64,000 bases of DNA from Histomonas meleagridis 2922-C6/04-290x (taxonomy: Eukaryota; Protista; Parabasalia). Position 1 is the stretch's first letter; every line of letters starts with the position of its first letter. The notes beneath the pieces are model-generated. The model was not told where the DNA came from, did no database searches, and saw nothing but the letters and a program-made list of their open reading frames with translations. The DNA is taken from the NCBI GenBank assembly GCA_020184695.1, contig JAANOX010000214.1, positions 1 through 64,000 on the forward strand. The letters are read 5' to 3'. Both the position numbers and the translations under genes were made by a program. Below are positions 1-25,755 of the stretch, piece by piece.

Positions 1-40
1 AGCATTGAGGTCTTAAGCACGAAGAATATTTTTAGAAGTA

Positions 41-100
41 AACCTAACAACCTAACCTAACTTAACTTAACCTAACAAAAAACATTCGAGAAAGCCTTTT
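41..100 (+). repeat. Island intergenic motif copy (AACCTAAC..TAACTTAAC..AAAA..TCGAGAAAGC)
   Basis: Also at 1694-1751(-), 6600-6657(+), 8741-8784(+) and 9617-9672(-); not noticed outside the island. Confidence 0.8.
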
Positions 101-357
101 ATGAAATTCAGCATTTTGCATAGTATGTGATTTTCTTCTTGTTTCTAACGGTTGATCTTTTATTAAAGTGTTCTTTAACGACTTTCAATAATGAAAAGCT
201 TCTTGTTGTTAAATCTGTTCCGAAGTAATTATTATACATATCACACAATTCACCAATCTCTAATTCTCCGTCAGGAACTGAAGCAAGAAATGAATCAAAA
301 CTTAATTCAATACTCTGAACTTTTTGTTTTTACTTATTGTTTCTCTTCTGTATTAAT

Positions 358-1476
358 TCATAAATTCTCCATTAACGTTTGAATATAATCGGAAAATCTA
401 CTTTCTAATACTTCCGGTAAGTCTCTAATTAAAATTTGATTTATATCTCTTACGATTGACTGAGCATAAACTTTTATTGCAGTTGAATTTTCAAATGTTA
501 TTGAACTTTTAGCTATTGAACCGATGGAGTTTTTCATAAAATTATAAATGGTCATAAAATGATCAGAAATAAATTTTTCAAATGATTTCTTTAAATATTG
601 TTCAATTGTTAAATACTCTTCTGTTTCATTAAATTGTATTTTTGCGATTAGAAATTGTAATCTATTAATTAAAGTTTGATTGTGTTCGGTAAACGCTTTA
701 ATTACTTTTTGTGATGACTTAGTGTCAAATACATTTCGTATAGTTTTTTCGTATTTGTTTCGGCTGATTTCATCAAAAGCATTTTTATACATGTCATAGT
801 ATTCATCCAACAATTCCGTATAATTCTTATTGACAAATTCATGAACAAATTCATTAAGATTTCTTATAACATCTTTGTTTGAATGAGGAATCGACAAAAA
901 CTCAATCAATCTTTTTCTTTCTTCTTCTTGCTCTCTCTGTAAACATTTTTCTTTCCATTCAACTAATGTAAATTTTTGTTGGTGAGCTAATCGATCGTAA
1001 ACTACTATTTGCTCTTGGAGTTCTTGTTCCATTTCTTTGTATATGTGATTCTCACGATAATATTTATTTATTAATCTATCTTCAATTATTTCGGGAAGGT
1101 TCTTTTGCATGTTCTTTAAATTTTCAATATCTTCTAAATCATCTTTATCTAATTCATATTTTCCGATAATAGCGTCGTATTGTTTTAATTTCTTTTCGAT
1201 TTTATGATCTAAAGTATCGTATTGTTCATCAAAGTTTTCATTAACGTAAGTTTCAATTGCTTCTTTGTCGAATAGTTTTAATTTCTCTTCACTGTGTTTA
1301 ATGACGCTTTCGAAATGCTCTATGTTCCATAAAAGAGAATTATAATAATTTGATTGTGGTTTGAAAACCTCAATCGGACAATCATTAATAGTACATTTCA
1401 TTAAACTTTTGCCGTAAACGTAAACGTAATTTTCAAGAGTTGTTGTTGCAGTAAGTGGAACTAACTTATCACACAT
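358..1476 (-). CDS. Intact 372 aa acidic coiled-coil protein of the viral island, function unknown
   Basis: Uninterrupted ORF; a decayed paralogue lies at 6867-7524 on the opposite strand with many synonymous differences. Confidence 0.75.
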   Translation of the reverse strand: MCDKLVPLTATTTLENYVYVYGKSLMKCTINDCPIEVFKPQSNYYNSLLWNIEHFESVIKHSEEKLKLFDKEAIETYVNENFDEQYDTLDHKIEKKLKQYDAIIGKYELDKDDLEDIENLKNMQKNLPEIIEDRLINKYYRENHIYKEMEQELQEQIVVYDRLAHQQKFTLVEWKEKCLQREQEEERKRLIEFLSIPHSNKDVIRNLNEFVHEFVNKNYTELLDEYYDMYKNAFDEISRNKYEKTIRNVFDTKSSQKVIKAFTEHNQTLINRLQFLIAKIQFNETEEYLTIEQYLKKSFEKFISDHFMTIYNFMKNSIGSIAKSSITFENSTAIKVYAQSIVRDINQILIRDLPEVLESRFSDYIQTLMENL

Positions 1477-2008
1477 TTATATACAAATAAAAATTAAATT
1501 TACTAACTTTATTTTTTCTGAGCAGACAAGCGTTTTCTGAACTACAACATCAAGAAACAGCACTAAATACAACATTCAACATAAAAATAAGCCTTTTCCG
1601 TCAATTAATCATCATCAGCAGCAGTAAACATGTAAAATTCACGTCATATCATCAAGTTAGAGCCTCAACCTCAAAAATATATGGACTTTTACGAAAAGGC
1701 TTTCTCGAATTTTTAATGGTAGGTTAAGTTAAGTTAGGTTAGGTTGGTAGGTAGTAGTATTAAATTTTAACAACAAAACACTAAAATCCACATAGGATTA
1801 ACAACAACTCAGCCGGATTAATGCCTCACACATTTTAAATATAAATGTCATCATGAATTTAAATATATTTTATTACTTTCAATCAAAACCAACCGATTTA
1901 TGATAATTCAATCGATTTTAGCCGTTCATCCTTTAGTTTATGTAGCGCGAGTGGGAGCGAGTGCGTAGCACGAAGCTCACATAGCGCTGTGTGTGTGTGT
2001 GTGCTATA

Positions 2009-2405
2009 ATGGATGCTCCACAACAATTCAAATGTAATACTCAAACAACAGATAAAATAAAAATTAAACTTGCTAAATATTATGATTAAGATGGATGTTT
2101 TTAATGCATTACAATATAAGTATATTGATGTTCCTTAATTATAACCAATTCATGTTTGTCAAATCAGAAATTTTACACAATCACTTAAAAATGATGATAC
2201 TGCTGCTACTATAGAGTTAAAACATTGTGATTTATTTACAGTATTTAGAATAAATCAATATAATAGAACTTGTTTTATTAATCCACAAATCGATTATAGT
2301 TTTAATATTAATGGTCATATATACCCAAGAGAAGTATATAAAACAATTGATGATGCTTGCAATCTAAACATGTTGTTATATGCATTGAATCTTGAGTTGG
2401 GAATC
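2009..2405 (+). pseudogene. C-terminal fragment of candidate major capsid gene (copy 1)
   Basis: Manual translation MDAPQQFKCNTQTTDKIKIKLAKY..MDVFNALQYKYIDVP..PIHVCQIRNFTQ..IELKHCDLFTVFRINQYNRTCFINPQIDYSFNINGHIYPREVY aligns with the 8287-8537 frame; contains stops and a frameshift. Confidence 0.6.
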
Positions 2406-2519
2406 GATGAAAATCGAATAAACGGTTTGCTTTTATCGATAAAAATCGATGAATAACGGTATTATCTGTAAATGGCTTAAATGATACAGTGGTTTTGTCA
2501 TAAAAGTCATTATTTAACT

Positions 2520-4021
2520 AAATAAATCTACGAGGTGATCTTTAACATCTTCAAATGAAAATTGACTGGAGTCATTAGTATTAGCAGCTGACTTATATAT
2601 ATAAAACATTTTTAATGTATTATTTCTATTAAAATCATATAATTATGTATAATTTGTATTATATGAATTGAATTGATTACACATTTCTGTTAATATTTCA
2701 CGTAATGGATCATTTGTTTGAATATATAGGGTGTCCGGTAGAGGTGTTAGCATCTCAACATAGAAAAAGAATAAATGAAAACAAATAATATCATTTTGTT
2801 CTATAGTGAATGTATTCACCTTTGATATCGATAACTCTTCGAAATCTCTCTTTCCAGTTATGAAAAGCTCGGTATAATTCATCTTTTGTAATGTCATTAA
2901 AAATTCGATGAACCTGATGTATTAACTCTTCAGGAATTTCAAATGAATAACCCTTGAGCTTTTCTTTGACATTATCCATTAGATAAAATTCTGATGGTGC
3001 TACGTCAGGTGAATATGGTAGATGTGGAGCTCTTTTCGTCTGGTTCGAGTCAATAAGATTTGTGGTGATGCGAGCAGTATGCGGTTTTGCATTGTCAACG
3101 TGCAAAATTAATCAACAAGAGCAAAACCATTTGGATTAAAATATATTGACAACATTAATTTCTAATAAAAAATTTACTTTAATACAATTTCTTATGAGTT
3201 ATCTTCTATTTGTACCCATTTTTTCTAATAATCATAGTTTAAATAGGACCATGATTCATCCACTGTAACAAAATGCCTCCAGGAATCTTTTTTTGCAGTG
3301 CTAATGACTTTTGATAGTTTAGTACATAATCGAACCCGCATTTTTTTTGCTCTGGTGTAAGAGAGTTGGGTACCCAATGAAGGTGTCTGGAAACAAATTC
3401 AATTTTGATTAGGTGATCGTAAACAGTTGACCTTGAGATATTTGTCTCCTTCATATCATTATAAATTTTAACAGCTGTCCATCCTTTAAGGCTGTTGTGA
3501 TATTTTGCGACAATATCTCGATCAATCATTTTTTGTGTTTAAAATGTGACAAAAATTGAATTCTCAATTTTTTTTTGAAGAAAAATTCGAGATTTCCCAA
3601 ATCGTCTGATATATTTAATAAATATTATATATATATATTTATATTGTATGGAAGATGCTCTATTATAATATAATAATTTTAATTAAATTAATTGCTTATA
3701 TATAGAGATGCTGACATTTCTACCGGATATCCTATATAAAGTAATTTTACGTGGGTCGAATTTAGTTGACTGTGGATTTCCTTTCCCACCTATTTTTTAC
3801 ATAATAGTATGGCTAGTAGGTGTAATTTTTAAACGTCTTAAACTTGTAACTTTATTCTGACAAGGTATTTCTATCCAAAATGGGAATCGAAAAGTATATC
3901 CCTTATATATATCCAATTTATCAATATTATTATCATTTTCTTGTATATCGTGGTTAGTGTAGATTTCTTCAATTGGCAATTGTGATACTCTACTACTCAT
4001 TTGACGTTCATTTTTATACAT
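2520..4021 (-). pseudogene. Island gene of unknown function split by the mariner insertion
   Basis: Removing 2727-3734 plus one TA joins ..KFDPRKITL to YIQTNDPLREILTEMCNQ.. in frame; further stops on both sides. Confidence 0.6.
2727..3734 (-). mobile_element. Tc1/mariner element, internally deleted, transposase pseudogene
   Basis: 30 bp TIRs TAGGGTGTCCGGTAGAGGTGTTAGCATCTC (2727-2756) and 3705-3734, 25/30 identical, flanked by TA. Transposase motifs HWVPNSL, VTVDESW, DNAKPH and PYSPDVAPSEF lie in broken frames. Confidence 0.92.
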
Positions 4022-4576
4022 TATTTATTTATAATGAAATATGATAAATAATAGAATTGATAGAATTGAAAATGTTATATAATCTTCATCAAATAAAAAT
4101 TCTGTAATATATTTCAATCATAGTAAGACTTCAGATACTCTTTTTAATGAAATATGTTCATTAACGATAAATAGTATAGATAAGTCATTTATATTCACAT
4201 GATTTCGGCAAAAATCGAATCCCGATTTTAAATATTTTTCACTTATGTATACATAGGATCCTTTACACTCAAGTATAATATAGTGAGCTGTTCACTTTTT
4301 ATATTAGCTCATACACTTTTTGAATGCTGATGCCACTTTTTGAAAAGCGACATTTTCAATTCAAAATTTTTAATGAGGTCTCGCAACTACAAATTTCAAT
4401 TAAAAGTTTGTCCCAAATTCCTCACCAAAAAAAACTTATATAACTTAAAAATGTCATTAAATTTCTATAAAAATCTTACTTAATAATCTTAATAATTTCA
4501 AATGAAAGAAAGTGCATTAAAAATAAAATAATTTTTAATATTAATCCTTTTATAAATTAAATATGGCCACAATTAT

Positions 4577-5704
4577 CTAATTTGTAAAATTCTTGCTTGG
4601 TTTTTTCTTTTTATCATTTATACTACATGAAATATATGAATCCATTGGCAATTTAAGAACAGGGGCTAAATCATTATAAAACATATCTGCAATAGTTAGA
4701 CAATATTTATGATGCATATAATATTGGTGCACTATTTTCGGGAAATAAGATTTATTATAGTACAAATACGGATATTTTAATTTTGGTTTTGGCATATATC
4801 GAATGGTAATGAATTTCGTTTGATAGCAGAATTCAATTGTGACTTTTCTGAATAAATATCTTTGATAATAAAGTAGATAATTAATATAAATCTGATCAAA
4901 TATACCGAAATCTTGTGAGAAACCTGCTTTTGTTTTTTCTACCAAAGCTATATACTGTTCTAAAAACTCAATCATTGAAGTATAATCGCCCCAAATAATG
5001 CCAGCATTTATTACAGGCTTTTTCGCTACTTCTGGTGGAATTTCTGTTATGACTTTTAATCGTTTATAAGTCCATTGATTTTTCTCAATTGAATACACAT
5101 GTGTAGAAAGATATATTCCATCAAAAGGTTCACTGAACGGATCTGCTTGATAAACACTATCAAAAATATCAATATATATTACCTGTTTTAGAAAATCACA
5201 GAGTTTTAATATATAATAATAATAAATATATCTGATTTCACAAATTTTTGCAAAATTAAATTTGGGGTTAATTATGCCAATATCATCAAAATATATGTTA
5301 CATAATGAAAGATTGCGTATAAGTTCTTGTGGAATAGTTTCTAGAAGTTTTTTATCTACTTGAATGATATAGGAAGAGTAATTATTAAAATATCTAAAGC
5401 TCTGAATGGCGGGAAAGAAACTGTAATATTTAAACATCATTGTAGAAAAAACGCATGAATTTGTGATGGATTGATTGACTAAATGATATTCTCGTGTACC
5501 AATGTAACATTTTCCAGAATGCCATTTTTTATATTTTGCTAACTTGGTTAAAGAAGATGTGAAATCGATTTGATTAAGCCTATTATAGGGGTAGAATATA
5601 TTGTACATCAGCAGTCCTACCACAAATATTATATTAAATTGGATTACGCGGCTAAGAATTGGTTTATAAGCCATGAAGTATTTGTCGAGCTTTTTCATAA
5701 GCAA
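4577..5704 (-). CDS. Type II membrane protein, putative GT-A-like glycosyltransferase
   Basis: N-terminal hydrophobic anchor (IQFNIIFVVGLLMYNIF), IYIDIFDSVYQADPF (DxxD..Q.DPF), INAGIIWG and DQIYINYL motifs; intact 375 aa. Confidence 0.6.
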   Translation of the reverse strand: MLMKKLDKYFMAYKPILSRVIQFNIIFVVGLLMYNIFYPYNRLNQIDFTSSLTKLAKYKKWHSGKCYIGTREYHLVNQSITNSCVFSTMMFKYYSFFPAIQSFRYFNNYSSYIIQVDKKLLETIPQELIRNLSLCNIYFDDIGIINPKFNFAKICEIRYIYYYYILKLCDFLKQVIYIDIFDSVYQADPFSEPFDGIYLSTHVYSIEKNQWTYKRLKVITEIPPEVAKKPVINAGIIWGDYTSMIEFLEQYIALVEKTKAGFSQDFGIFDQIYINYLLYYQRYLFRKVTIEFCYQTKFITIRYMPKPKLKYPYLYYNKSYFPKIVHQYYMHHKYCLTIADMFYNDLAPVLKLPMDSYISCSINDKKKKPSKNFTN

Positions 5705-6866
5705 CCGTTTGTTTCAATACATCAAAATTAACGTCTTTTTACAATTACCATTAAACATATGAATGTAAATATATTGAATTTAATTAATTAACTAGATTCA
5801 CATCATATGTATCGTTATATACTCAGAATTAATCAGTTAATATATATTAGTGATATCAGTCGATTTTAATAAATAAAAATCGTTTAATAAAATCGTGTGT
5901 GTATTGAAACCATTTCCATTAATGCAACTTTCTAATTGATATGGAAAACAGCATTATTTATTGAAAATTTTCGAATCGAATAAAATGACTTTAATCAAAA
6001 GACCTCCCTGATTATTCATGATGTTAATGACACACAAACAGCACAACTATTGGGTCCTTAAGGGTTGACGCCCCAGGCCCCTTCTTTGTAAACTGTTAAA
6101 AGCCATTATGTTAAAATAAATGATTAATATATGATAAATATACTGATGCTAATTTTTTCCAATTCTACAGGGATAATGAAAACACAACCCAACCCAATTA
6201 ATGAAGTCGAATTCAATACTTTATATCAAAAATGAGATAATCTTAGTTCACTTTTCTTCATTGAAATTTTATTGTTTGAATAAATTCACTTTTTATTTTA
6301 ATTTTTGTATCAACCGTAATAACCTAATAGCGGTTTTACCTGTATCGGAAATGATATTCTGAATATAACTCTTACGTGTAACGACATGAACTAATTGAGT
6401 GATTTTTAATCGTATTATCATTCAAATTTAAATACAGTGAGTGATAAAATATATTCAAATTCATGATATTAATTATTCTTAATGTGCGCTTATCGTGAAT
6501 TCGGATGGAGTGCTTTAGATAATCCTCTGTGGATTTTAGTGTATTGATGTAAATTATCTGTGGATTTTAGTGTTTGGAGCTTAAGATATTTCTTTGCAGC
6601 CTACCAACCTTTTCTAACTTGACTTAACCTATCATTAAAAATTCGAGAAAGCCTTTTCGTAAAAGTATATATATTTTTGAGGTTGAATTCTAACTTGATG
6701 ACTTAACGTAAATTTTGCATGTTAACGGGAGTTGCTGACTATAAGCTGATGGACAAGGCTTGTTTCTATGTTGAATGTTGTATTTACTGCTGTTTCTTCA
6801 TGTTGTGATTCAGGAAAGGCTTGTTTGCTCAGAAAAAATAAAGGTAGTTTTTTTATTTGTATATAA

Positions 6867-7524
6867 ATGTGTGATAAGTTAGTTCCACTTACTGCAACAA
6901 CAACTCTTGAAAATTACGTTTACAGTTACGGTGAAAGTTTAATGAAATGTACCGTTAATGATTGTCCTATTGAAGTTTTTAAACCGCAATCAAATTATTA
7001 TAATTTTCTATTATGGGATATAGAGCATTTTGAAGATGTCATTAAACACAGTGAAGAGAAATTAGAACTTTTCGACAAAAGAACAATTGATATTTACGTT
7101 AATGAAAATTTTGATGGATAGTACGATACTTTAGACCACAGAATGAAAAGAAATTAAAACAATACGAATAGCTATTATCGGAAATTATAAATTAGTTAAA
7201 GTTGATTTGGAAGATATCGAATGAATCTTATTGAAATCATTAAGGGTAGATTAATAAATAAATATCATCGGAAAATCACATTTATAAAGAAATGGAACAA
7301 GAACTTCAAGAACAAATTGTCGTTTACGATCGCTTAGTTCACGAACAAAAATCCACATTGGCTGGATAAAAAGAAAAATGTTTGCAGAAAGAACAGGAAG
7401 AAGAGAGAAAAAGATTAATTGAGTTTTTGATATTTCATCATTCAAACAGAGATGTTATAAGGAATTTAAATAAATTTGTTAAAGAATGTGTCAATAAGAA
7501 TCATACGGAATTGTTAAACGAAAT
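6867..7524 (+). pseudogene. Decayed paralogue of the 358-1476 gene, truncated and fused to the capsid-like frame
   Basis: Identical N-terminus MCDKLVPLTATTTLENYVY; TAG at 7119, frameshifts and a ~20 nt deletion; homology stops abruptly at about 7524. Confidence 0.9.
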
Positions 7525-8537
7525 CTGCAGGATTGGTATAATGAAGATGATGAAGCGGTAAAAGGTTCTGAGATTATTCCTGGAAATTATGAGTACACGA
7601 CTGCTACTTCTTACGGCAATGTTGGAGATATAAACGTAGGAAATACTACATACGTTGACATCCTCACAGATAGATATAAAATTATTGGTTTAGATAATTT
7701 TTATATTACTTTATAACAAGAAGTACCAATTACCGTTCCGTCACAATCAAATTTTTCGTATAAAAAATATTATGTCGGATATGAATGTTCATGCGATGGT
7801 ATAGATCAATACAGAATCCATTCAAACATAGATAAAATTCAAGACGTTTATAACGCAAGGTATGAATGGTTCATGCTTTTTAATTCATTATCTGACGAAG
7901 CTAAAGCATATAATGATTGTTTCGCAACTATCGATAAAATAAGAGCTCACAATTCAATGGTTCCAGGAGTTCATTGTGATTTCAGCGCTATCACCTCAGC
8001 AAAAGAAGTTATAGTTAAGATTCAGTTAAGAATTCCAATAAGTTATTTTATGATGTTATTTAATATGCGATATTATCCAAACTGGAGCGGTAAGCTTTCA
8101 ATCTAACTAATACCCACATAACAAAATCTTGTTATTGCGCCTGTATGCGACCATGAATCGTTAGTTGCTGCAAAAGCCGTAGTTGAAGAAGATTATTTAT
8201 GCGACCTTGGATTTAGAAATGTTAATGAATCAGTAAAGAGCAACATTAAAGCAACAACAGGAAGCGGAACAACAACTTACGCAACAATGGATGCATCACA
8301 AAAATTCATTTGCAACAGTCAAGTTATAAAAGAAGTAAAAATTAAGCTTGCAACATATCTTTTAAAAATGGATGTGTTTAATCTTCTGCTGCGAAATATA
8401 TTCAAGTTCCGATGCTATTTCCAATTCACGTTTGTCAAGTAAGAGATTTCACACAACCACTCGGCAGTAATTCAACAACAGCCTCAACATCATTTAATAC
8501 TGCTGCAACAATAAGACTTGAACATTGTGATACTTGA
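7522..8537 (+). pseudogene. Candidate major capsid protein gene (copy 2) of a trichomonad Maverick/Polinton-like virus
   Basis: One frame runs 7522-8400 with three TAA stops (7714, 8104, 8119), then a frameshift: DWYNEDDEAVKGSEIIPGNYEYTTATSYGNVGDINVGNTTYVDI..YYVGYECSCDGIDQYRIHSN..VKIQLRIPISYFMMLFNMRYYPNWSGKLSI*LIPT*QNLVIAPV. It is beta-rich and resembles, from memory, the repeated trichomonad Maverick structural gene. Capsid identity is an inference. Confidence 0.55.
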
Positions 8538-8954
8538 ATACTGACACGAAATTTTGTTTCCCCGCGGGGTGTTGTATAAGCAGTTTATATTATTATGTAT
8601 CAAAAATTTATGTCAAGGATAGCGGCGATACTTCCAATTTAATGTATTCTTACTCTGACGTCTGTGAGTTCTTATATGAATAAAAAATATCTACAGAATT
8701 TGTTAAGAGTTCAGAAAATATATATTATAAATATATGCTATCTAACAAACTCAACATAACTTGACAAAAATAAATCGAGAAAGCGCTTCATTTATCAAAT
8801 TCTGGATGATATTTTTTGATAAAATAACTCCACGAATCAACTATTTACTTTACTTTTTCAGAACTATTTATAATTTTTTTGTATTCTTAAATATTTCACT
8901 CGCTAAATCTTCTTGCTCTCATTGATTCAATATTTTGCCTGAGTCTCTATAATC

Positions 8955-9440
8955 TTAATATGGTTTATTCACAAACTTTCTGTCGATTGTTGTCGCTATT
9001 GATTTTGCGAATTCAACAAATACAGGTTTAGCATTTTCAACTGTATCAGGTAATTGTTTTTCATTTAATACTTCGTAAGCTTTGTCATTAATGATATCCA
9101 TTATTATTCCAACATAAATTGCATATCTTGGCGATACCCAAAAGCTAATATAATTTATTATACGCTGGTCCACGTACGTTCCTTGAACCTTTGCGATATA
9201 TTTTTTCGATAGATATAGTGGGTCGCCCGTTTCGGGGCTACCATAATATTCTTTGCAAAATTCTTCATAATATGCCTGCCACGAGTGATACTCAAAAATC
9301 TTTTCAAATCTTCTGTTAAATTGATTACACATTATTGTGGCGTTAATAAATCCATCTTTCTTAATTGCTACTGCAATTCTATTATAAGTTTCAAGGATGT
9401 AATTTTCACCGTTGCAAAAAATTTTTAACTGTTCAACCAT
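8955..9440 (-). CDS. KilA-N domain protein (probably C-terminally truncated)
   Basis: DGFINATIMCNQFNRRF..GTYVDQRIINYISFWVSPRYAI is a typical KilA-N/APSES signature; coding-like sequence continues past the stop to about 8870. Confidence 0.9.
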   Translation of the reverse strand: MVEQLKIFCNGENYILETYNRIAVAIKKDGFINATIMCNQFNRRFEKIFEYHSWQAYYEEFCKEYYGSPETGDPLYLSKKYIAKVQGTYVDQRIINYISFWVSPRYAIYVGIIMDIINDKAYEVLNEKQLPDTVENAKPVFVEFAKSIATTIDRKFVNKPY

Positions 9441-9684
9441 GTTCTTATATTAAAAATAAAATATCAAATTTTATAAAAATAATGATATCTGTTTCTGAAA
9501 TTTGAGCCTGTGTCTTATGCTCGCCCTTTTCTGGGATAGCGAGCTCCTAAGCATTTTTCGGGTGATTTGACACAATCAAAAATGAAGGTTCGTTAGAAAC
9601 TGCTATTTCCGCAACAGCTTTTTCCGATTTTTTTGTTGAATTAAGTTAGATTTGATTAAGTTGGTAGGTTGCAAAAATATATTT

Positions 9685-11810
9685 TTAGCTCAACTTCTTT
9701 ATCGGATTACTTGCATTTTCACAGTATTCTTTAATCTTCGGTGTGCAATGGTTATAATAACTGCCGTCTTCATGCTTACCGATATAATTTTCAGCAGATT
9801 CATAATATATTTATGTAAATATATGTTCAACCTTGAATTTTCCTAGTTCATTACCAATTAATCCTTTATCTTTCAATAACATAAAATCTTCTTCTGATAT
9901 TAACGCAGAATCTATCTCAAAATAATAAACTTCAACAAGATTCTTTAATGAATTCATTTCGTTATTAAAAATTATCTAAAACACTTTTTGCGAATTGAGG
10001 ATAAGTGAAGCTTTCAACATAAGAATTTACTGTATCAACAAGTTCTGAAATTCCATCTGCGTTATACGTATACTTCGAGACATAAGGAACGAATTCATCA
10101 ATATAATTTTTCTATTTACTTATTTATTTTTGTGTTTTCTTGTTTGAAGCTTCCGTTAGCATCAGGCAAACCTGGAGGGATAAATTGAACACTTGACATA
10201 TACGCACCGCATTGATAAATATAATAAAGTTTTCGTTTTAAATTGATCTTACTCCAAATAATTTTCGGAAAATGAATTTCAGATTTAATTTTATCTGCAA
10301 TGGAGGTGGAAAATGAATATACATCATCAAAACATCCGAATTCAAACATTATCTTATGCATCAGCTCAGAAAATTTATGATATCTTAATACATTAAATAT
10401 TTTTCTTAATTTCAACGAATCAATGACTTCTTGATATTCTTTCAATCTCTCCGGGATTTTTTTTTCTTCCGGACTGTATCCATAAAACCTTTTTGTTTGA
10501 TTAACTTTTCTAGAATAATTTGATAAATGTTTTTTATCAGCAACAAATATTTTTCTGTAAGAATTGAATGTTCTTTCGTTTGATATCTCATAACTCCATG
10601 AAAGCTCATATATTGTTTGTTGATTAATTGGAATTAGAAGTTTATGTTGTATCATTAGATATATTAGACTTCTTATACTCAAACATTTCTCAGAAAATAA
10701 ATATCATTTGTCATTGAATTTCAATAACATCATTTTTCTGTTATGATTTTTATATCTTGAATCAGCATTCTAACATTCCGATACATTAACTTTAGAATTT
10801 AGCATATAATGGTCTTTTATAATTATTAGTTTTATTTCTCTGTTGAAATTCACACCAAATATCTTGACACGCGTATGTTTGGTTCCTGGATAAGCTATTT
10901 TGAATTCAAATTTTGAATTTTAATAAGTCAGAAATTCTTCTTAACTCACTTCTTGGAACAGTTCGCGTTTGAATAAAACTCTTCAATAATTTTATTTCAT
11001 CTTCTTTCAATACTTCCTAAGCAATAAATGTTTGAATTAAACATAATTCATTTATATTAGAATCATTAACGTCTGTAAATATTCCAAATCTTATTAAAAA
11101 AATATCTGGCGTGTTGATGTAAGGTAAGTATCTCGGATTTATTCTTTTTCCTTTATTGAGATCTTGAAATTCAAAATAAATGGTTTTAATAAATAACAGG
11201 TGTTCAAATACAACATCGTTTGTATCACCGATCACTCTATCAGTATTCAAGCCAGCACGTAAAAATTCAACGGTATTTTTATTTGCATGTTAATATTGTT
11301 TTCTTCAGTCCTCATCAATTAAAATCATTCTAATATCTTCATTAATTTCAGGTCCTGTCGTTTCAATCGCGTACATCATAGCAGAAAGAAAGCCATCAAT
11401 ACTTCCTTCGTTTTCAAACGTAAAATTATTATGTTTCATTAAATTTTTGATAATTTTACTTATTATTACATTATATACTTCACGTTTGAAATCTTCGGAT
11501 TCATTTTTGAAAGATTCATCTTTCTTTTTACTGAAACGTTCAAATAAATCTCAATTTTTCGGTTCATTATCACTTAATGGAAGATTCATTAAATTATTAA
11601 TTTCCTCGGGGATGTATTCTGCTATTCCTCTTGATATTTTAATTGACTAACACTTAGTCTTAAATAATTTTGATATTGTTCGTCGTCATAAACTTCAAGT
11701 GAAGTTGAAGTATTCCTATAAACAAAATTTTTCGGTAAAGTGTATCCATAATTTTCGAATAAACTCTAACTTCTTTTTTGCTCAATCTTTTTGGTTTTTT
11801 ATCGAAAATA
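9685..11810 (-). pseudogene. Highly divergent family-B DNA polymerase-like gene
   Basis: Motif-A-like LYYIYQCGAYMSSVQFIPPG (about 10190-10230) and motif-C-like EVYYFEIDSALI..LIGNELGKFKVEHIF (about 9810-9933), read manually on the minus strand; broken by stops and frameshifts. Confidence 0.65.
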
Positions 11811-11854
11811 AAAAAATAAATTTATTTTAAACTAAGTTTAATTTATTTCTAAAA

Positions 11855-12394
11855 TTAATTCTCTATACTGCTCCATAGAGGAACAAATATATGATCATTT
11901 TGTAAAGCACAAACTATTTCTTGATTTATCGCATCAGCTATATCATCTTGCTTTTTATATTTTTCATAATAATATGACATCTGAAATGAACGCCACACTA
12001 AAATATTTTTCTTCAACATTCTTTAATAAATTTCTTGCAATATTAACGCTCAATTTTATATGAGCTTTATTTTTGGTGTTATATTCTGAATCTAAATATG
12101 AAATTTTTTTTTCCGGTTGTAATAAATGAACATTTACTTCAGAGATTAATGTAAGAGTAATGATACTATACATTAATTCCATAGCAACAGTGTTTACCGG
12201 GAACCGTTTTTCAATTACTACTGTATCAATATTATTATCTCTTATAATATTGCCAATATATCGATTAATCAATTTGCATCTTTCGATAGCATTTTTGGCT
12301 TTTGATATATCGATAACGTCAAAAGTAATAGCCGGAAATATAATGATGGTGTAGCGAGATTTTTAACTCCAATATCAATTGATGATATCGGCAT
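11855..12394 (-). pseudogene. Poxvirus A22-type RuvC Holliday junction resolvase
   Basis: Three RNase-H-fold motifs in order across frameshifts: MPISSIDIGVKNLA (from 12394), DTVVIEK (ORF 11964-12272) and KKQDDIADA (11930-11956). Confidence 0.85.
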
Positions 12395-12540
12395 CTTTAT
12401 AAAATAAGGGAAAAATTTGTTATTCATTATATTTTTGTAGCATAAAGTGTATTATGAACGTTTGCTATTTTCCAATTTTTTGTTTCCTCAAGCATTCCTT
12501 TTATCTCATCTTTCCGAATCATGCACTTCTTGACAGCTTT

Positions 12541-13119
12541 TCATATTTTGACTATTGACATAACAGGAATTCTTTCTTTGTTTGGAAAATATGCCTCAAC
12601 AAGAAAATTGATATCTTCTGATTCTTCAACTTTTTCTTGAATATTTCTAATTTCATTTTGCAATCTTTCTTTCGCTTCTTTTCTTCTATCTTCTATATCT
12701 TTGATGAAATATTCATATTCTTTCATCATTTTTTCGCACTTTGCACACTTCAGTGAGTGATATTTTGCATTAAATTTATAAACTTTAGCCGAAAAATTCA
12801 TCGAAGCTTCAATTACTTTATCAACATCATACATTTCAATGTTAAATTCATTAAATTCTTTACCGCGTGAATCTTTGTTATTAATCCTCCAGCAATACTC
12901 AGCTAATAATTTATAAAAATCATCAATTATCTTTAATTCAGATATTTTACGTAATTTTAAGGTGTCAGCATTATATGTTAATGCTTTACTTTCAAGTATT
13001 GAGTGATTGCAAAAAAAGGTTTGTGTTTTTCTGTTAATTTTTTTAATTAACCCTTTTATTTCTGTTGGATCATTTTTTTTCAATTTCAATTTTTGCAAAA
13101 CTTTTGACCGAAACATCAA
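12541..13119 (-). CDS. Basic/coiled-coil protein of unknown function, probably part of the island
   Basis: 192 aa open frame on the same strand, directly upstream of the resolvase; the start codon is uncertain. Confidence 0.5.
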   Translation of the reverse strand: MMFRSKVLQKLKLKKNDPTEIKGLIKKINRKTQTFFCNHSILESKALTYNADTLKLRKISELKIIDDFYKLLAEYCWRINNKDSRGKEFNEFNIEMYDVDKVIEASMNFSAKVYKFNAKYHSLKCAKCEKMMKEYEYFIKDIEDRRKEAKERLQNEIRNIQEKVEESEDINFLVEAYFPNKERIPVMSIVKI

Positions 13120-13522
13120 GCGTTAATTCAGGAATACATAATGATGGAATACATTTTGCAAATTCTGAAATTTGCTATAAATATTGTTGATTTCTTTCTA
13201 ATTTAACTTCAACAGGAGATTGATGATTCAAGATTTTATTTTTATATTCTTTTATACGAATTTCATGCTCATTAGCGATGTTGATGTGTTAAAAACAGTT
13301 AATAATTTTACAATCGCATGAACATAAAAAAAATATCAGTCAAAAAATATTTCATTTAGACATAAATTGATGAAAAGTACATAACTCCATCGTTTAATTT
13401 CCAGAAGAAAAGCAAATCAATCTTACCAATATAAAATTTAGGCTAACTTGTGACTTGCAAGTCATTTTAAAATATTAATTTTTAAATCATTAAAATAAAT
13501 ATGAAATAAAACAAATTGATAT

Positions 13523-13966
13523 ATTTTTCGCATTAATATCAATTCCTTTTTGTTCAAGAAGTATTTTAACAATTTCTATATAACTATTTTTAGATGCAAA
13601 CATAAGTACTGTGTCAAATAGTTAAAATAGTTTTCAAATATTATTTTAAAATATAAAATTATTATAACAAATATCAAATAATACAAATAAATATCTTTAG
13701 CATTAATATCATTTTCTTTTTGTTCAAGAAGTATTTTAACAATTTCTATATGACCATTTTTAGATACAAACATGGATGCTGTTTTAAATATTTTAAATAG
13801 ATTCCATATATTATATTATTTCAAAATATCAAATCATTAAATTAAATCCTAAATAAAACAAATTGATATTTTTAGCATCAATATCAATACCTTTTTGTTC
13901 GAAAAGTAATTTAACAAGCTCTATTTGCTAATTTTCAGATGCATAATTAAGTACTGTTTGAAATAA
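13523..13966 (-). pseudogene. Three ankyrin-repeat modules separated by 85 and 80 nt AT-rich spacers
   Basis: 90 nt units at 13868-13957, 13693-13782 and 13523-13612, each T(V/A)xxxxS(K/E)NxxIExVKxLxEQKxxDIxAK(D/N); the first unit has an in-frame TAG. Confidence 0.8.
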
Positions 13967-15299
13967 GATAAATAATTTTCGAATATTATTATGATGTCCT
14001 AAATTATTAAAATAAATTACATTAATTGATTTATATCTTCCTGAATTTCTCCTTTACAGAATTATCATTAACATCCTCATTCTCACCTTCACAATTTGTG
14101 ACTTATAATATATAGAAAAAATTTAAAGAAAGAAATTGACATCAATAAATCAAATGAATATAATATAAAGAAAAAAAAAAAAAATATTAAAAAACACAGA
14201 TATGGAATTTGATGATTTAAAAATTATTCTAGCTATAGTGAGATAAAAGGATATGAATTTAGTATAATGTTTCTTATCATTAACAAATTTTATTATGATT
14301 GTTTTGAACATTTTAAATTTTTCTTTTTTTTTTTTTTGAAAAAAATTTATACTATGTAGTAAATAGAACTTCCTCGTGGGGGCCCCGAACACATAGCGAT
14401 CATTTTTTTGACAGTTAACCATTACCATCAAACCAAAAATTTAGGGTTATCGTTTTTTTGCTACAGACAAACCTTGTCAATTTTAGTCGCAAAAAAAATA
14501 ATTTAGATGTCATTTTACTGTAATTAAATTTGTTAGATAAAAATTAGATGGAACAAAAAGTCAGATTTTGATGAAAAAAATTATGATATTAGGATATGAG
14601 ATAACAAAATCATATAAATTATTGATTTTTATAATTTCTTCACATTTTTTAAGTTTCATTTACTGGTGAATGCCCTTAATTAGAAATTTTATAAATATCA
14701 TATGCTGAAAAAGAAAGAGAATAAAAGATTTATGAATAATAAATAAAACATTATAATATTTTTAAATTCACATATCTGTTTAAAGAATAATAGTAAAATA
14801 ATATTGGATGGGGGAAAAAAATGTACATTTTAGCATAAGGATATTTTTAATAAACTGGATGCAGATTTCCAACGATAGAATCAAATGAATAAAAAATCAT
14901 CAGATTTATATTCAAAAACTGAAGTAATAAACCAAGAAAGTTGTAGAAAAACAAACAACTTACAAAAGATTCAAAAACACAAAAACTATTATAAGATACA
15001 TACTAAAAAATTAAACAAAATAGACAAAAATGCTAAAAATGATTAAGTGAATCACAGGTGTTTGAAAGAGAGAAATAAATTGAAATTATTTAACATGTTA
15101 AATAAAATACATTTCAAACACTAACAAGAAAACTTGGGTATAATTTCCCGGGGTTTTCTTTTGTTATTAAAATGTCATTTTGCACCCCCAATTTTAAATA
15201 TGTTTATCAATGACTTATTCATTTAAATTTAATAGACCCAAAACGTCATTAAGCACTAAGCCGCCTACCAAGTGTTAACTCCTTTGCTCATTTCCATTA

Positions 15300-15719
15300 A
15301 TGGCACGTACCAAACAAACAGCACGTAAGTCAACCGGTGGTAAGACGCCGCGTAAGTCACTCGGCGCTAAGGCAGCACGTAAGTCAACACCAGTTGTTGA
15401 TTCGCAAGGCGCTAAGAAGCAGCATCGTTTCAGACCGGGTACAGTTGCACTCCGTGAAATCCGTAAATATCAAAAGAGCACAGACCTCCTTATCCGTAAG
15501 CTTCCATTCCAACGTCTTGTTCGTGAAATTGCATCTGGATTCCGCGGAGATCTCCGTTTCCAATCATCAGCCATCGCAGCACTTCAGGAAGCCTCAGAAG
15601 CATATCTTGTTGGTCTTTTTTTGAAGATACAAACCTTTGTGCGATTCATGCAAAACCGTGTTACAATTATGGAACGCGATGTCCAACTTGCACAAAGAAT
15701 ACGCGGTGAACGTAACTAA
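15300..15719 (+). CDS. H3: Histone H3 with an apparent compensating frameshift (15616-15655)
   Basis: [33 protein letters not shown]. Removing 2 T from the T7 run and 1 A from the A4 run restores [18 protein letters not shown]. Confidence 0.95.
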
Positions 15720-16706: not shown

Positions 16707-16736
16707 AAACTTATTTTATATATATATATAATAGAT

Positions 16737-18584
16737 ACATTAAAAAATGAAAATTAGAGAAGCATATGTTTTATTTAATATAAGTATTGAGGAGCCTTAT
16801 AAATTTGAGAATTTATTCCACTATTAATAATATCATTATAATTTGAAACATAATTCTCAAATATATCAATTCTTCTTCGAAATTCTTTTGCTCTTTGAAT
16901 ATCTTCTTCTGAATTTAAGATAAAGTTTAATCGAAATACATCAAAACCATTAATATTCTTTCTTTTAGAATCAAAATAATTAAAATAATTGAAATGAATT
17001 TCAGATGTTCGATTAGTTTTTGAAACAATACCACAAATTCGTAATCCAATGCCAACTGTATATAATTTGCGAAGCATCGTTTTATATTTACTTTTCCCTT
17101 GTGAAAATAATTTCGCAATTTTATGTAAATTTAAACAATTCTTGTTTAAATAAAAGAATAATTTAATAACTAATATTGATATATTATCAAGTCCTCCATT
17201 AGAACTACAATCAAATAGCATTAATATTTCATTGTTTTGTGAACTTTTTTCGATTTCTTCTTTAAATTTTTTTATAGTATTTTGAATATTATTAATACCA
17301 ATCCATTGAAACATATCATTCGAACATCTTCGACATACTTCAATACCATCACAAACTGTGATGAAATCTTTCACTGTTCTTTTACTAACATTAAATTTTA
17401 TACTAAGTTCTGAGATGAAAAATAATTTATTATTATTGTTTTCTAAATATTCTGATAGTACTTTTAATATTGTAGCATCATTAACATTCATATTTTGTTG
17501 AATCATTTAATCAAGTGAACTCAAATATTTTAAATATACTTGAAAAATATATCATTAAAAATCTTAAAATTATTATTTCCTTTGAATAAAATTTGAATAT
17601 TTGAAAAAAAACAAATATTTATAATATAATTAATATGAGAAATATTATATGAAAAATTATAAATCTTATATTAATTTTATATTAAGATATTAATATTTTT
17701 ATAAAAAATGTTGGTTTGGTCTTCTGTATCGAATTCGAACGTTATTTAAATTTTATGAGGGCAAATACATCTGGTTAAACAGTCAATTTATGAACTTTTT
17801 AAGAATATAAAATTAATTTAACGTTGGAAATTATAAATTTTATGATAAAATTTCATGTCTTATGAATATGTTCAATTGATCAGCGGTATTCAAATAAATT
17901 AGTGAATATTAACTTATTAATTTATATGATCACTTACTTTCCTATTTTGTTTTGTAATAAAATGATTTTGAGAGTATACAATGTCATAAAAAGCACATAA
18001 TATTTCATACATAACATTTCATAGATTTAGCAAATTATTACTAAATTGTTTGCCACTCATAAGAATTTGCACATCATGCAATCTAGGTTTAGTATCATTT
18101 AGATTTAGGGTTTTTGTATGTCTTAATGTTACTCATATCATTTTCTTAATTGTATCATTGATTTTTATGATATATTAAAATTCAAATGTGAATGTTGTGG
18201 TAAAGAAACCGTTATTCAATGCATGTTTTTTGATCTGTTTTGCCATGTTGAAACAATAACTTTCACTTGTTAAGTTTGGAGACAACCATTTGTAACGAAT
18301 TATGGTAAATCATGTGTTAATTATAAATAAAGCATATTGTTGAAGAAAATGATTTGTTAAAGTAAAAGCTTTAACGTACAGTGAAAAAAACGTTTATAAA
18401 CGTGGAAATCTCCTCTCTTGTTCATTACGATTTTGTTGTATTTCGATACTCATATTCTTTTTTAATTATTTAACAAAATTCAGCAGGAACGAATAAAGTA
18501 AATACAAGATCAATTTTTGAAATTTTTGGAATAAATCTTTTTTATAATTTTAAGCACATTATTAAACAATTTAGTTCTCTTTAT
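16737..18584 (-). repeat. Left arm of ~1.85 kb inverted duplication
   Basis: Near-identical reverse complement of 26103-27953; the ATG-to-boundary distance is 1078 bp in both arms. Confidence 0.95.
16775..17506 (-). CDS. Atypical E2F/DP-like protein with two winged-helix domains
   Basis: KRTVKDFITVCDGIEVCRRCSNDMFQWIG and LRKLYTVGIGLRICGIVSKT resemble the E2F RRxYDxxNVLxxxGxxxK...W.G motif twice. Confidence 0.7.
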   Translation of the reverse strand: MIQQNMNVNDATILKVLSEYLENNNNKLFFISELSIKFNVSKRTVKDFITVCDGIEVCRRCSNDMFQWIGINNIQNTIKKFKEEIEKSSQNNEILMLFDCSSNGGLDNISILVIKLFFYLNKNCLNLHKIAKLFSQGKSKYKTMLRKLYTVGIGLRICGIVSKTNRTSEIHFNYFNYFDSKRKNINGFDVFRLNFILNSEEDIQRAKEFRRRIDIFENYVSNYNDIINSGINSQIYKAPQYLY

Positions 18585-19932: not shown

Positions 19933-21410
19933 AGCTGCACAAGCTAAATAACAATATGTTTCACTAAAAATTAATTTTATTTTTCATAAATAATTTTTAA
20001 GAAAGCAAATATATCTTTCTAATCAAATTGCTTTTTTTTGCTCACTTTAAAATGAGAAAAATGTTAAAAAATGTTTTCTCTATTACAAAAAAAAAATTTA
20101 AAAACAGAAGATGAAAAAACAAAGTTATATGTGAACAATTTAGAAGGTTATGAATTACATTTTAAAAAAGACGCTGTCAACCAAATAAACGGTCTTTTCA
20201 AATCAGAAAATCAATTTTTTTCATTTTCAACTGAATCAAATTTAAAAAAAATATAAATAAATAAGTATACACATTCTATTCAATAAAATTATCTTAACCA
20301 AATTTTGTTATCTTGTTTTTTTTATGAGCAATCTCCAAAATTCCAAAATGCTTTTTTGGGCTTTAGGATTAAATACAGAAGTTCGAATTAAATAAATACA
20401 TAGAACTAATAATAGTCAATATTAATTTATATAATTTTTCTGTAGTTTTCATTTTGTTTTTAAGTTATACAAGATTTTCAATATCTATAGATCAGAGCAA
20501 AAATTCGAAAATCTGTCTTTGCAATTTTTTAAATTTTTATGTTCTATAAATAGGATAATTCTTGAAACAATTTATTCATTATTGGAGGCTCTGGACAAAA
20601 AAGAAAAATTAACTTTTTGAATTAATTTTGCGGTTACAGATGTATCAAGATTTGAATGTGGGAAGTCAAATTTTAATACTTTACAAAAAAAATTTGAGAG
20701 CAAATCCATCAAGATTCGTTCCTCCACGAGTGAGCGATAGTCACAACAAGTAATCACAAAATTAAACAGAAGATAAAAATGTTTCAAACATTTTTTCAAC
20801 AATACTTGTATATACTGGTTTAGATGTGGTTAATTGATATATCCAGTCTTTACTTAGATGACCGTTTGTGTATTGTATCGACACGAATTTAAATGGAAAG
20901 TGACTAAATTCAAAGGAAATTTTAAAAAAAATTATTATATCTTCATAAAAATTTGTCTACTGTTCTTATATGTTAAAATCTGATATGTATTAAATACATT
21001 ACAAATAATTTTAGAATTAAAAAAAATTTTATAAGAGGGAAAATTGGTTGACAGTGTCTTTTTTAAAATTATTGCCCAACAACGCACTCAATAGTAGTTG
21101 CTGATAATCGGGATGTTCGCATACATCACTTACGACCACCAACGATGCCAATTTACAGCAAAACTTTCAAAGATATTTGGTCTTTCCAATTTTTCACTTT
21201 TTTATAAAATAAAAAAGAATTGAAACCACAAAAGCTTCCTAATAAAATTTTTTTGCTGGTGGAAAAGGAGGAGCATTAACCGCAATAAAAATATAAAAAC
21301 ACAAAATGAGTTTATTTAAGAGGTCATCATTTGCAATTTTTCATTCTTTAAAAAAAAATTAATAATAACAATTATTTATTAAACATTCAAAGTATAATAA
21401 GACAGTGTTT

Positions 21411-21686
21411 TTATGACGTAAATAATAAAGGAACAGGTGGAAAATTATTTGTATTTTGATCTCTAAGTTGAAGAATAATATTTTCTCCATCAGAAATATA
21501 AACCATTTTCAGCGTGCTTTCATTCCGAAAGGTTTTGTTGAGATATCTTGGTAATAATAATCTCATATCTTTAATTTGACGATTAACAAATTTTTTTAAA
21601 AGCCTTTTGATTTTAAGGCACGTTGTATCCATTTCTACATTCAGGTAAATTATATTGTTTTCCCATCTTATCTTAATGAAAACCAT
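21411..21686 (-). CDS. Ubiquitin-like protein, Elongin-B-like
   Basis: MVFIKIRWENNIIYLNVEMDTTCLKIKRLLKKFVNRQIKDMRL resembles the Elongin B N-terminus (VF..IR....I......++KR++..++.R...+.RL); no C-terminal GG. Confidence 0.5.
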   Translation of the reverse strand: MVFIKIRWENNIIYLNVEMDTTCLKIKRLLKKFVNRQIKDMRLLLPRYLNKTFRNESTLKMVYISDGENIILQLRDQNTNNFPPVPLLFTS

Positions 21687-22577
21687 CTTTTTTGTTTCAA
21701 CGATCATTAACCGCATTTGTTGACAAAATGATCGGCAACAAACGGTCGTTGAAAATGTCTTCCATACCATTTTGATCAATGCTAAAATTTTTGAATTAAG
21801 GTATGCAGTGTGTTGCCTTAGTGTGTCCCATTAGTAATTTTAAGACTTATTTCATGTTAACAACAATAAATGATTTTCACAAATTGATATCTGATTGAAT
21901 TTTATATTAAGCATAAAAGCTGGAATATCGTATTCATGTTTAATAGTTTTAGTGTCTTGCGGATCTTATTTTAATTTACTTTATGTATTTTTTTGACTTC
22001 ATCAAAATCAAAATCAAGTTTTTTGGATTCACTATATAAAAAACCGTACAAACACAAAACTTTCAACGTGTCTAATCAAAAAATTCAGTCACATGTGACA
22101 TTTTTTAAAATATGTTTCTGTTTTCTTGATTTCTTATAATAATTTACAGTATTGGACAAGTAAAAATACCCCTTGATTTGAACATTAGATATTAAAAATC
22201 TTGTATCATTTAAAAACATTAAAAAATAATTATTTTGATTTTTGAAATTTAATTTAGAGGAAAATGAAAAAAAAACAACTTTTTTGGATTTGAAACGAAT
22301 GTTTCTTTAATTAACTTTAACCTTCCTGATTCGGTTATGTTTTTTAAAAAGGTTGATAGGTTCCTTAATATATTGAATCACAGAAAATATTTTTGTCTCC
22401 GTACTTTTATGAAAAACCTAATAATTTTCAAATAAATCATACAAAAATACTAAAAAACACCGGAATGATTTGAGTGGTTCATATTCAAAAAACTAAATCA
22501 CAATTGAATTTGAAAATGCAAAACAATAATAAAAAGATAAAAATGGTTTTCGAATTTGTTTTAATTCATTTTTTTAA

Positions 22578-24428: not shown

Positions 24429-24922
24429 GTAAAAGCTCTTGAAACCATTTTTTATAAATCATTTTACATTTAAAATTTTAACCATCAAACACAAATATTT
24501 GAAATACTTAATCAAATAATTCAGGAAATTTAGAAGTTTTTAATTTTAACATATATCAACTAAGTAAATTTAGTTAGATATTTAAATGTGAACACCTTAA
24601 AGTTGTAGTATGATGAAATTTTATCAGTTTTTGTTTATTAGGTTCATAATCAACCTAATTGATGAAGATTCCACATTTAGGAATCAGATTATAGTTCCCC
24701 AACAATTGTTTTTTTCCCTGTGGATAACAGTTCACTGACCATTGATTTTGGATATCAAAAACGCCTAAATATATATAGGGATTTATGGGAAACATAAAAA
24801 TACACCGAAATGAAAAACAATGATATTATTTTACTTTCTAAATAATCTCACGATTTATTCCTTGGGAAGCAATAATTTTCATATATCATGTGAACAAGAT
24901 GAAAAAGGAATAAATATTGTGT

Positions 24923-25435
24923 TCACTTCCGACGATAATTCTTGTAGAAGTCTTGGGCAAGCCTACCCATCCCTGATGTGCTTGAACTTCTGAGTCTAGA
25001 TCCATGTGTACTGTTCTTTCGCGTACCTTGATTGATTTCAGAAGGATCAATAAATTTCTTTGTTTTGGTTTCCTCTTTAATGTGCTTTTTAATTATAGGC
25101 CTGTGAATTTTTTCTTGAAATTCTAATTCTTTTTGATCATAGTATTTACGCCAAGTGGCTCCAGGAGGAAGAACTAAGGGATCGCGTTTACCAACCCAAA
25201 ACTTTTTTAACACTATAACACGCCAAAGTTCTTCTAAAATATCATTAAATCCAGGAATTTTGGAATTAGGTGAATTATCTTGAATTTCAATTAAATCTTT
25301 TGGACCAACGTTTCTTAATATTTGACGAATTAAATGAGGAGGAACACCTGTAAATATTATGTTTCTTGGATTAATTGTAGCTAATCGATTGAGACAAATC
25401 TCTTTGAGAGTTGGGAAGTGATCACTTGGTTTCAT
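24923..25435 (-). CDS. Elongin-A-like protein (BC-box)
   Basis: FPTLKEICLNRL..GVPPHLIRQIL..LEELWR..TWRKYY follows the Elongin A SIII-activation-domain pattern. Confidence 0.7.
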   Translation of the reverse strand: MKPSDHFPTLKEICLNRLATINPRNIIFTGVPPHLIRQILRNVGPKDLIEIQDNSPNSKIPGFNDILEELWRVIVLKKFWVGKRDPLVLPPGATWRKYYDQKELEFQEKIHRPIIKKHIKEETKTKKFIDPSEINQGTRKNSTHGSRLRSSSTSGMGRLAQDFYKNYRRK

Positions 25436-25614
25436 TGTCGGTTTAAGGACCGTTAAGGAGGGTCTGCTATGAGCAGAAACTTTGCAGGGAATTTAACAGA
25501 CATGCTGAAGTACTTTGTAAACCAACATTCCTTCTAGATTCTTTCAACCGGGGGCAATCGTGCCATATTGCCATTTTCAAAATCTCTTGCCATATGGCAA
25601 CAGACTTAGTTAAA

Positions 25615-25755
25615 ATGGCAACAAACTTAGTCAATTAAATTGTATATCATTCAAATGTGGCAACGATAGCTCTCAAATATGGCAACAAACTTAGTCAATT
25701 AAATTGTATATCATTCAAATGTGGCAACGATAGCTCTCAAATATGGCAACAAACT
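25615..25755 (+). repeat. 64 bp tandem repeat (2.2 units) within a TGGCAAC/TTGCCA-rich tract
   Basis: ATGGCAACAAACT starts at 25615, 25679 and 25743. Confidence 0.9.

Follow-up and report, generated by a model that had tools for sequence, protein, structure and literature searches.

A probable decayed Polinton/Maverick mosaic in Histomonas meleagridis, with a shortened polymerase gene and a poxvirus-type resolvase gene

Overview

The block at positions 1-13330 of a 64,000-nt stretch of Histomonas meleagridis DNA (contig JAANOX010000214.1; "the window" below is this whole stretch) is most likely a decayed mosaic of a variant Polinton/Maverick element, the intact form of which would carry a short protein-primed polymerase as well as an integrase of retroviral type, with a Holliday-junction resolvase as a likely optional extra. 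Set in AT-rich eukaryotic DNA with compact host genes, the block is made up of four fragments, all decayed, from a Polinton/Maverick family of high copy number, together with a mariner-like remnant and a host gene. This layout comes from mapping proteins of related elements onto the window and from comparing the window with itself. The fragments and the genes central to the argument are:

1-2002: fragment A, with a 372-amino-acid open reading frame (ORF), whose (AC)n-AG terminus borders directly on a capsid fragment
2003-4199: fragment C, with the capsid fragment, the mariner-like remnant and the starts of two further family genes
~6030-8713: fragment B, comprising a degenerate terminus, a broken copy of the 372-amino-acid ORF, the capsid gene for residues 18-355 and the last part of gene 6
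8955-13273, minus strand: fragment D, with KilA-N, PolB, resolvase and DUF3839
7522-8534, plus strand: major capsid gene, its product predicted to be of double jelly-roll type; it covers residues 18-355 of 537, is interrupted by 3 stops and 1 frameshift, and lacks its 3' part
9440-8955, minus strand: KilA-N gene (Pfam E 4e-17), between two inverted copies of a repeat, motif M
~11798-9690, minus strand: broken, minimal PolB of protein-primed type, with N-terminal domain, OTU protease domain, exonuclease remnant and a palm without TPR1
12394-11838, minus strand: A22/RuvC-type Holliday-junction resolvase gene, with frameshifts near 12350, 11990 and 11890 and its acidic motifs present
~13273-12427, minus strand: broken DUF3839 gene (Trichomonas vaginalis Maverick gene 11; E 4e-20)

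A preliminary description of this DNA had seen a co-oriented minus-strand run of genes facing a plus-strand capsid frame, and the coordinates agree: DUF3839 (the frame noted at 12541), resolvase, PolB and KilA-N occupy 13273-8955, opposite the capsid frame at 7522-8534. Its gene identities hold as well, for KilA-N from the family match listed above, for the resolvase from relatives that match Pox_A22 (E 1e-14), and for the capsid from an intact relative predicted to fold as a double jelly-roll; the E-values for KilA-N, DUF3839 and the resolvase also led to rejection of the idea that these are chance ORFs. It is likewise the case that most of the genes were missed through stops and frameshifts, as every element gene in the block except KilA-N is broken by these or by deletions, and the broken fragments of a multicopy family bear out the picture of a virus-like element that is endogenous to a parabasalid genome and in decay. 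What fails is the claim of a single element spanning 1-13330. The fragments are separate and differ in orientation, element ends lie at 1987-2002 and ~6030, and a host gene stands between; one intact 13-kb element was rejected on the grounds of that host gene and the opposite orientations.

The capsid gene, truncated at both ends in the window, was searched as the frame 7498-8439 with X placed at its three stops and gave 90 relatives, the best of them an H. meleagridis protein 88% identical; none of the 90, most of which are unnamed, carries a T. vaginalis name. An exact-match search with five window proteins gave no record. The model of P0007, an intact relative 88% identical to the window frame (predicted local distance difference test, pLDDT, 83.5), matches the capsids of iridovirus, Sputnik, PBCV-1 (Paramecium bursaria Chlorella virus 1) and mavirus at E ~1e-13 to 1e-11, and on this model the product is predicted to be a double jelly-roll major capsid protein.

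The shortened polymerase

The window copy of PolB is dead: its matched segments hold 13 stops, the reading frame shifts several times, motif A is altered and the motif B region has been deleted. It keeps a short layout in which 198 codons lead from the OTU histidine to motif A and 27 more to the fingers helix. A search of 1.84 billion representatives returned 414 matches, 150 of them listed, and the alignment used here comprises 30 of those listed and two proteins from the metagenomic loci described below (n = 32). The OTU cysteine and histidine and the residues of motifs A, B and C are invariant in all 32. Motifs A and B are spaced 48-58 residues apart in 31 of these short polymerases, as against 131-141 in 16 of 17 full-length matches (one was unparsed), and the OTU histidine lies 154-234 residues from motif A, as against 351-511. 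The shortened spacings are read as loss of TPR1 and of most of the exonuclease; judged from the alignment, ~170 exonuclease residues and ~80 TPR1 residues appear to be missing, and the preliminary description was right to call this PolB atypical. At 700-830 amino acids, the short polymerases stop just after the palm and have no fused superfamily 1 helicase.

Structural comparison places the enzyme with the protein-primed polymerases. P0127, the nearest to the window PolB among the matches listed, gave a model (pLDDT 87) whose best match is phi29 polymerase (Z 17.5, root-mean-square deviation 3.5, 292 aligned), followed at Z 13.1 by the best RNA-primed PolB; in a further comparison phi29 scored Z 16.5 versus 7.3 for African swine fever virus and 7.2 for vaccinia. 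Bidnavirus-like and mavirus polymerases head the matches in a viral structure library, mavirus being the second-best viral match. About 15 OTU protease structures align with residues 233-332 of P0127 (Z 3.8-4.8), each weakly but recurrently. The N-terminal half of the short PolB is homologous to PF03175 polymerases; the short family gives no PF03175 match and is missed entirely by Pfam. A single-sequence PDB search with PolB returned nothing useful, and a PolB profile matched E. coli Pol II over the fingers helix only (E 0.002). An RNA-primed PolB was rejected because the structure scores favour phi29 and the layout is OTU-fused. The models thus point to a PolB of protein-primed type, in a derived form without TPR1, whose mode of priming is a prediction. 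The layout corresponds to the TP-vOTU-palm one (terminal protein, viral OTU, palm) set out in 10.1101/2024.03.18.585575, which describes TPR1 of phi29 as the grip for a separate terminal protein.

In a FastTree phylogeny of 50 rows (P0157 and L008 left out), 29 short polymerases form one group with support 99, beside a group of intermediate length; the grouping is tentative because the branches are long. P0190, P0193, P0204, P0208 and P0217 are of intermediate length, with a motif A-B spacing of ~120 where measurable, and are possible steps in the reduction of the polymerase.

Relatives in gut metagenomes

Scanning metagenomes with the capsid alignment gave 132 confirmed stretches, of which the best 80 (L001-L080) are considered here; many of the records are labelled human gut. 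These loci look like a young, highly similar Polinton family with many integration sites, flanked by other eukaryote-type transposons, and their host is likely a gut parabasalid. The gene order is kept: an integrase-like gene comes first, then three unknown genes followed by capsid, a pair of small genes, PolB, another two genes, the ATPase and further genes. The integrase-like gene is present in 68 of the 80 loci, PolB in 60 and the ATPase in 11, and nine have all three with the capsid gene. The ATPase matches Pox_A32 (E 1.7e-6, above the Pfam cut-off), and most contigs end before its position. The integrase-like gene has D-D-D motifs, the second and third acidic motifs occurring in all 68; a single-sequence PDB search with it found nothing useful. 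Candidates for a minor capsid protein and a maturation protease have no Pfam or PHROG match. At L018:1-7400, L043:1-1314 and L052:8152-9345 the element is joined to phage-like or bacterial-like genes, probably in chimeric assemblies. No viral contig scanned matched the capsid, resolvase, polymerase, DUF3839 or P0006 (a further resolvase relative), a scan of prokaryote genomes was equally empty, and a phage collection gave one match at E 0.8.

The preliminary description had itself set its reading against the case that intact relatives are Mavericks with all of these genes. To a large extent they are, having an rve-like integrase, a PolB of protein-primed type, a double jelly-roll capsid, an A32 ATPase and (AC)n ends; the resolvase, along with DUF3839, KilA-N and the 372-amino-acid ORF, is found in none of the 80. 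KilA-N and DUF3839 are routine genes of Trichomonas Mavericks: parts of PMC12289875 give KilA in 82-87% and DUF3839 in 63-77% of T. vaginalis copies. Two points survive from the earlier account: Mavericks do not routinely carry the resolvase, and two parts of the polymerase have been lost.

The resolvase and its slot

The resolvase lies directly upstream of PolB and ends ~40 bp before it, with a ~33-bp spacer on the DUF3839 side. A search with its fragment found five relatives, four of them 63-73% identical; the Pox_A22 match given above is that of P0002, an intact one. The resolvase profile matches only three PDB sequences, all poxvirus resolvases (E 5e-7), and its motifs align with fowlpox and canarypox resolvases (6p7a), in keeping with an RNase H fold with four acidic catalytic residues. 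A single-sequence PDB search with the fragment gave nothing useful, and an Atlas search returned RuvC/A22-like clusters. P0006 / P0102, a 218-amino-acid relative at 37% identity, sits on a 37-kb contig whose context could reveal a donor virus.

Gene 6 directly precedes PolB in 59 of the 60 loci with both genes, and in the other a D5-like helicase lies between them; in three of the 80 loci (L001:7171-8556, L003 and L007) gene 6 has a D5-like superfamily 3 helicase gene after it, in the slot that the resolvase block takes in the window. The stop of the resolvase falls at the position of the gene 6 stop of relatives, ahead of a homologous spacer. For both P0003 (an intact resolvase) and P0295 (an intact DUF3839 protein with 79% identity to that of the window), the longest contig listed measures 2108 bp, and the two genes together need 1518 bp; the exact coincidence arose in 1.6% of simulations and is suggestive of linkage of resolvase and DUF3839 elsewhere.

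Summed contig depth, which is not a copy number, was in run X1 786-1,098 for a host gene, 185,000-291,000 for the capsid, 94,000-207,000 for PolB, 114,000 for the resolvase bin, 119,000-161,000 for DUF3839 and 21,000-30,000 for KilA-N, with similar values in X2. The resolvase is so far above the host gene that it must be multicopy, and KilA-N lies ~5-10x below the PolB block.

It is conceivable, and we think unlikely, that the resolvase and DUF3839 form a mobile cassette of their own, or a fragment of a virus such as an egovirus-like one, which landed beside a Polinton polymerase in one or a few copies. Such an origin would fit the absence of resolvase, DUF3839 and KilA-N from all 80 relatives, as well as the orientation of PolB, which is opposite to the capsid gene in the window, unlike in the 60 intact relatives. 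It would also fit the sporadic transfer of resolvase homologs from egoviruses to parabasalid genomes reported in a portion of 10.1101/2024.03.23.586382. On the other hand, the spacers are short (~33 and ~40 bp) and the one upstream of PolB is native, depth is very high, and similar, for DUF3839, resolvase and PolB, and in T. vaginalis class 3 Mavericks KilA, DUF3839, KilA and PolB stand in a row, according to the relevant part of PMC12289875. Since the resolvase is absent from 80 of 80 relatives that share the PolB, it is not needed for replication of the family; given that absence, and its absence from the T. vaginalis Maverick gene list, it is likely to be lineage-specific cargo. Figure S7 and Table S10 of 10.1101/2024.03.23.586382 may already place it.

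Element ends

The (AC)n-AG end pattern, present in the window at 1987-1998, recurs in 29 of the 80 relative loci, and all 23 pattern-bearing loci with enough flank differ from one another in that flank (23/23), some sitting inside other transposons or other copies. The junction at 2002/2003 is likely a nested insertion. Family copies inside other family copies, like that at 2002/2003, are seen at L067:2130, L045:45 and L070:995, and part of PMC12289875 describes nested and concatenated copies among T. vaginalis Mavericks too. Directly after the (AC)n run, 18 of the 23 ends of relatives carry a short palindrome (L015, L033, L053, L068 and 14 others); the end in the window is non-palindromic, as are the remaining five. 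No element end was found past 13273, beyond DUF3839, and the 5' start of DUF3839 was likewise not found.

Those palindromes are one reason to consider a lineage intermediate between Polinton-like viruses and Nucleocytoviricota, as the preliminary description had proposed, in which the resolvase would cut hairpin ends or concatemers and protein priming would be absent. The missing TPR1 and exonuclease portions could be read in the same way, as could the fact that the nearest solved structures to the resolvase are poxviral. Relatives with palindromic ends nonetheless lack the resolvase, and the window's own end has no palindrome; the OTU residues are invariant and the palm is phi29-like, the polymerase as a whole being nearest to those of phi29, mavirus and bidnavirus, not to the RNA-primed polymerases of giant viruses. 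An integrase and scattered insertion sites are traits of transposons. No giant-virus core gene cluster occurs among the ORFs of the 80 loci (the Pfam scan covered L033 and one L001 ORF), and no RNA polymerase or late transcription factor appears among the recurring ORF clusters of these loci, which lack right ends, or in the L033 Pfam scan. The intermediate lineage is accordingly the least probable of the readings, and very improbable in itself.

Other features of the window

The remaining features of the block are:

108-329, minus strand: 73-amino-acid open frame in fragment A, function unassigned, without a significant family
358-1476, minus strand: intact 372-amino-acid ORF beside an element end, multicopy
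1987-2002, minus strand: (AC)n-AG terminus of fragment A, abutting the capsid fragment
2003-2450, plus strand: capsid gene fragment of fragment C, residues ~283-427
2723-3738, minus strand: remnant of a transposon that inserted into fragment C, with inverted ends of 43 nt
3803-4199: head-to-head starts of family genes '20' (4021-3803, minus) and '21' (4044-4199, plus), arranged as in intact locus L033
4577-5713, minus strand: single-copy host gene, glycosyltransferase-like by eye, interrupting the block and outside the element
6030-6660, plus strand: terminal region of fragment B, including its degenerate (AC)n terminus
6867-7522, plus strand: broken second copy of the 372-amino-acid ORF
8567-8713, plus strand: 3' end of family gene '6', which comes after the capsid gene in intact relatives
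43-100 (plus), 1694-1752 (minus), 6600-6657 (plus), 8732-8789 (plus) and ~9612-9670 (minus): motif M, a ~60-bp repeat

We take the remnant at 2723-3738 to be Tc1/mariner-like from transposase motifs in its translation (Pfam only E 0.21). Family searches placed the 372-amino-acid ORF in no family, and an Atlas search gave no usable match. Motif M may be where a terminal repeat ends on its inner side, or else a cassette end. It is rich in CCTAA-like units, and inverted copies bracket the 372/73-amino-acid ORF pair and, separately, KilA-N; contigs link window position 6584 to 45 and 6791 to 9555. The bracketing and the joins hint at exchangeable cassettes or short non-autonomous derivatives. Bordering the block, 13465-14022 holds three ~170-bp repeats of very high depth, ankyrin-like by eye. 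Elsewhere a histone H3 gene (15300-15719) has an apparent frameshift near its 3' end, and an inverted duplication of ~1.9 kb (16718-18584 / 26103-27972, 99% identical) that carries an E2F-like gene flanks a gene with 117-bp tandem repeats (22664-24574).

Comparison with known systems

Closest in host and gene content are the T. vaginalis elements TvMav1-3, for which the portion of PMC12289875 drawn on here gives a parabasalid host, KilA-N, DUF3839, PolB, integrase, A32 ATPase and capsid-like genes, and nested copies. They differ in that the words 'Resolvase', 'Holliday' and 'A22' occur nowhere in the eight supplementary files of that paper, and in that their PolB is annotated there as an ordinary organellar/viral type, whereas that of the window family has no PF03175 match. 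The mavirus-type polymerase, in so far as it is treated in part of 10.1101/2024.03.18.585575, likewise has the OTU followed by only an exonuclease remnant and has lost the first motif C aspartate; mavirus is reported there to retain TPR1 and TPR2 and to encode a helicase, whereas in the window family TPR1 is cut by ~80 residues and a D5-like helicase is confined to the three loci named above.

OmPLV of Oxyrrhis marina, going by the available part of PMC12721341, is an endogenous virus of the double jelly-roll kind; its Pox_A22 resolvase, which groups with poxvirus homologs, stands beside a protein-primed polymerase. That polymerase is described there as fused to a helicase, and the virus as having a tyrosine recombinase and lacking an rve integrase, in contrast to the rve-like integrase and free-standing short polymerase of the window family. 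Egoviruses are large viruses with RNA polymerase, reported as KilA donors to parabasalid polintons, and resolvase homologs are reported to occur sporadically in genomes of Parabasalia and Trichostomatia; in the same portion of 10.1101/2024.03.23.586382, KilA alone, and not the resolvase, is put inside polintons. More general background is given in parts of PMC4028283, PMC5718144 and 10.1101/2025.04.19.649669. Searches of the openly accessible literature, outside which the original Maverick/Polinton papers fall, found no account of the short-PolB family, a Histomonas Maverick or a TPR1-less polymerase.

Proposed replication cycle and its significance

In the variant Polinton/Maverick element as we envisage it, linear DNA would be copied by the shortened protein-primed polymerase, the N-terminal domain of which may act as a built-in terminal protein, priming in cis before the OTU protease cleaves it away; with the terminal protein fused in this manner, TPR1 would be dispensable. 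Insertion would proceed through the retrovirus-like integrase and DNA packaging through the A32 ATPase. The variable slot upstream of PolB would, in the window lineage, be filled by the resolvase and DUF3839, and the resolvase would cut branched intermediates arising from many copies that replicate or recombine, without being core machinery.

Several points weigh against this reading. Searching the 64-kb window with 425 queries gave no match to integrase, ATPase or other core genes, so Polinton membership rests on relatives 64-67% identical in the capsid. In those relatives one of three variants of the integrase-like gene matches rve (E 2e-4, below the Pfam cut-off) and the other two do not, and a scan of 13 L033 ORFs recognised no maturation protease. 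No locus spans both ends (three were examined), and neither long terminal inverted repeats nor 5-6 bp target duplications were seen. Residues ~100-208 of the polymerase are a putative terminal protein; linkage of resolvase and PolB is directly seen in the window copy only, the equal contig figure being circumstantial; and runs X1 and X2 belong to one study, possibly the source of the assembly.

A bolder version, which seems to us an unlikely one, is that of a widespread gut-protist Polinton clade whose polymerase is pared down to terminal protein, OTU protease and a palm lacking exonuclease and TPR1, with no helicase, and whose Histomonas branch gained a poxvirus-type resolvase and replicates through branched or hairpin intermediates cut by it; if true, a small integrating virus would have converged on the way in which poxviruses resolve their genomes. 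Surprise is limited because the locus is a fossil and because OmPLV already offers a published case of a resolvase next to a protein-primed polymerase. The family appears as integrated copies in many gut metagenomes and could be mistaken for a free virus. The resolvase would be the second giant-virus gene, after KilA, gained by parabasalid Polintons. TPR1 and TPR2 are diagnostic parts of protein-primed polymerases, and loss of the exonuclease has been proposed to accompany gain of a helicase; both rules seem to be broken across at least 29 divergent sequences, and the short PolB is a direct test of the role of TPR1 in a polymerase with a fused terminal protein. What stays of interest, rather than the window locus itself, is the polymerase in its reduced form together with the lineage-specific resolvase.

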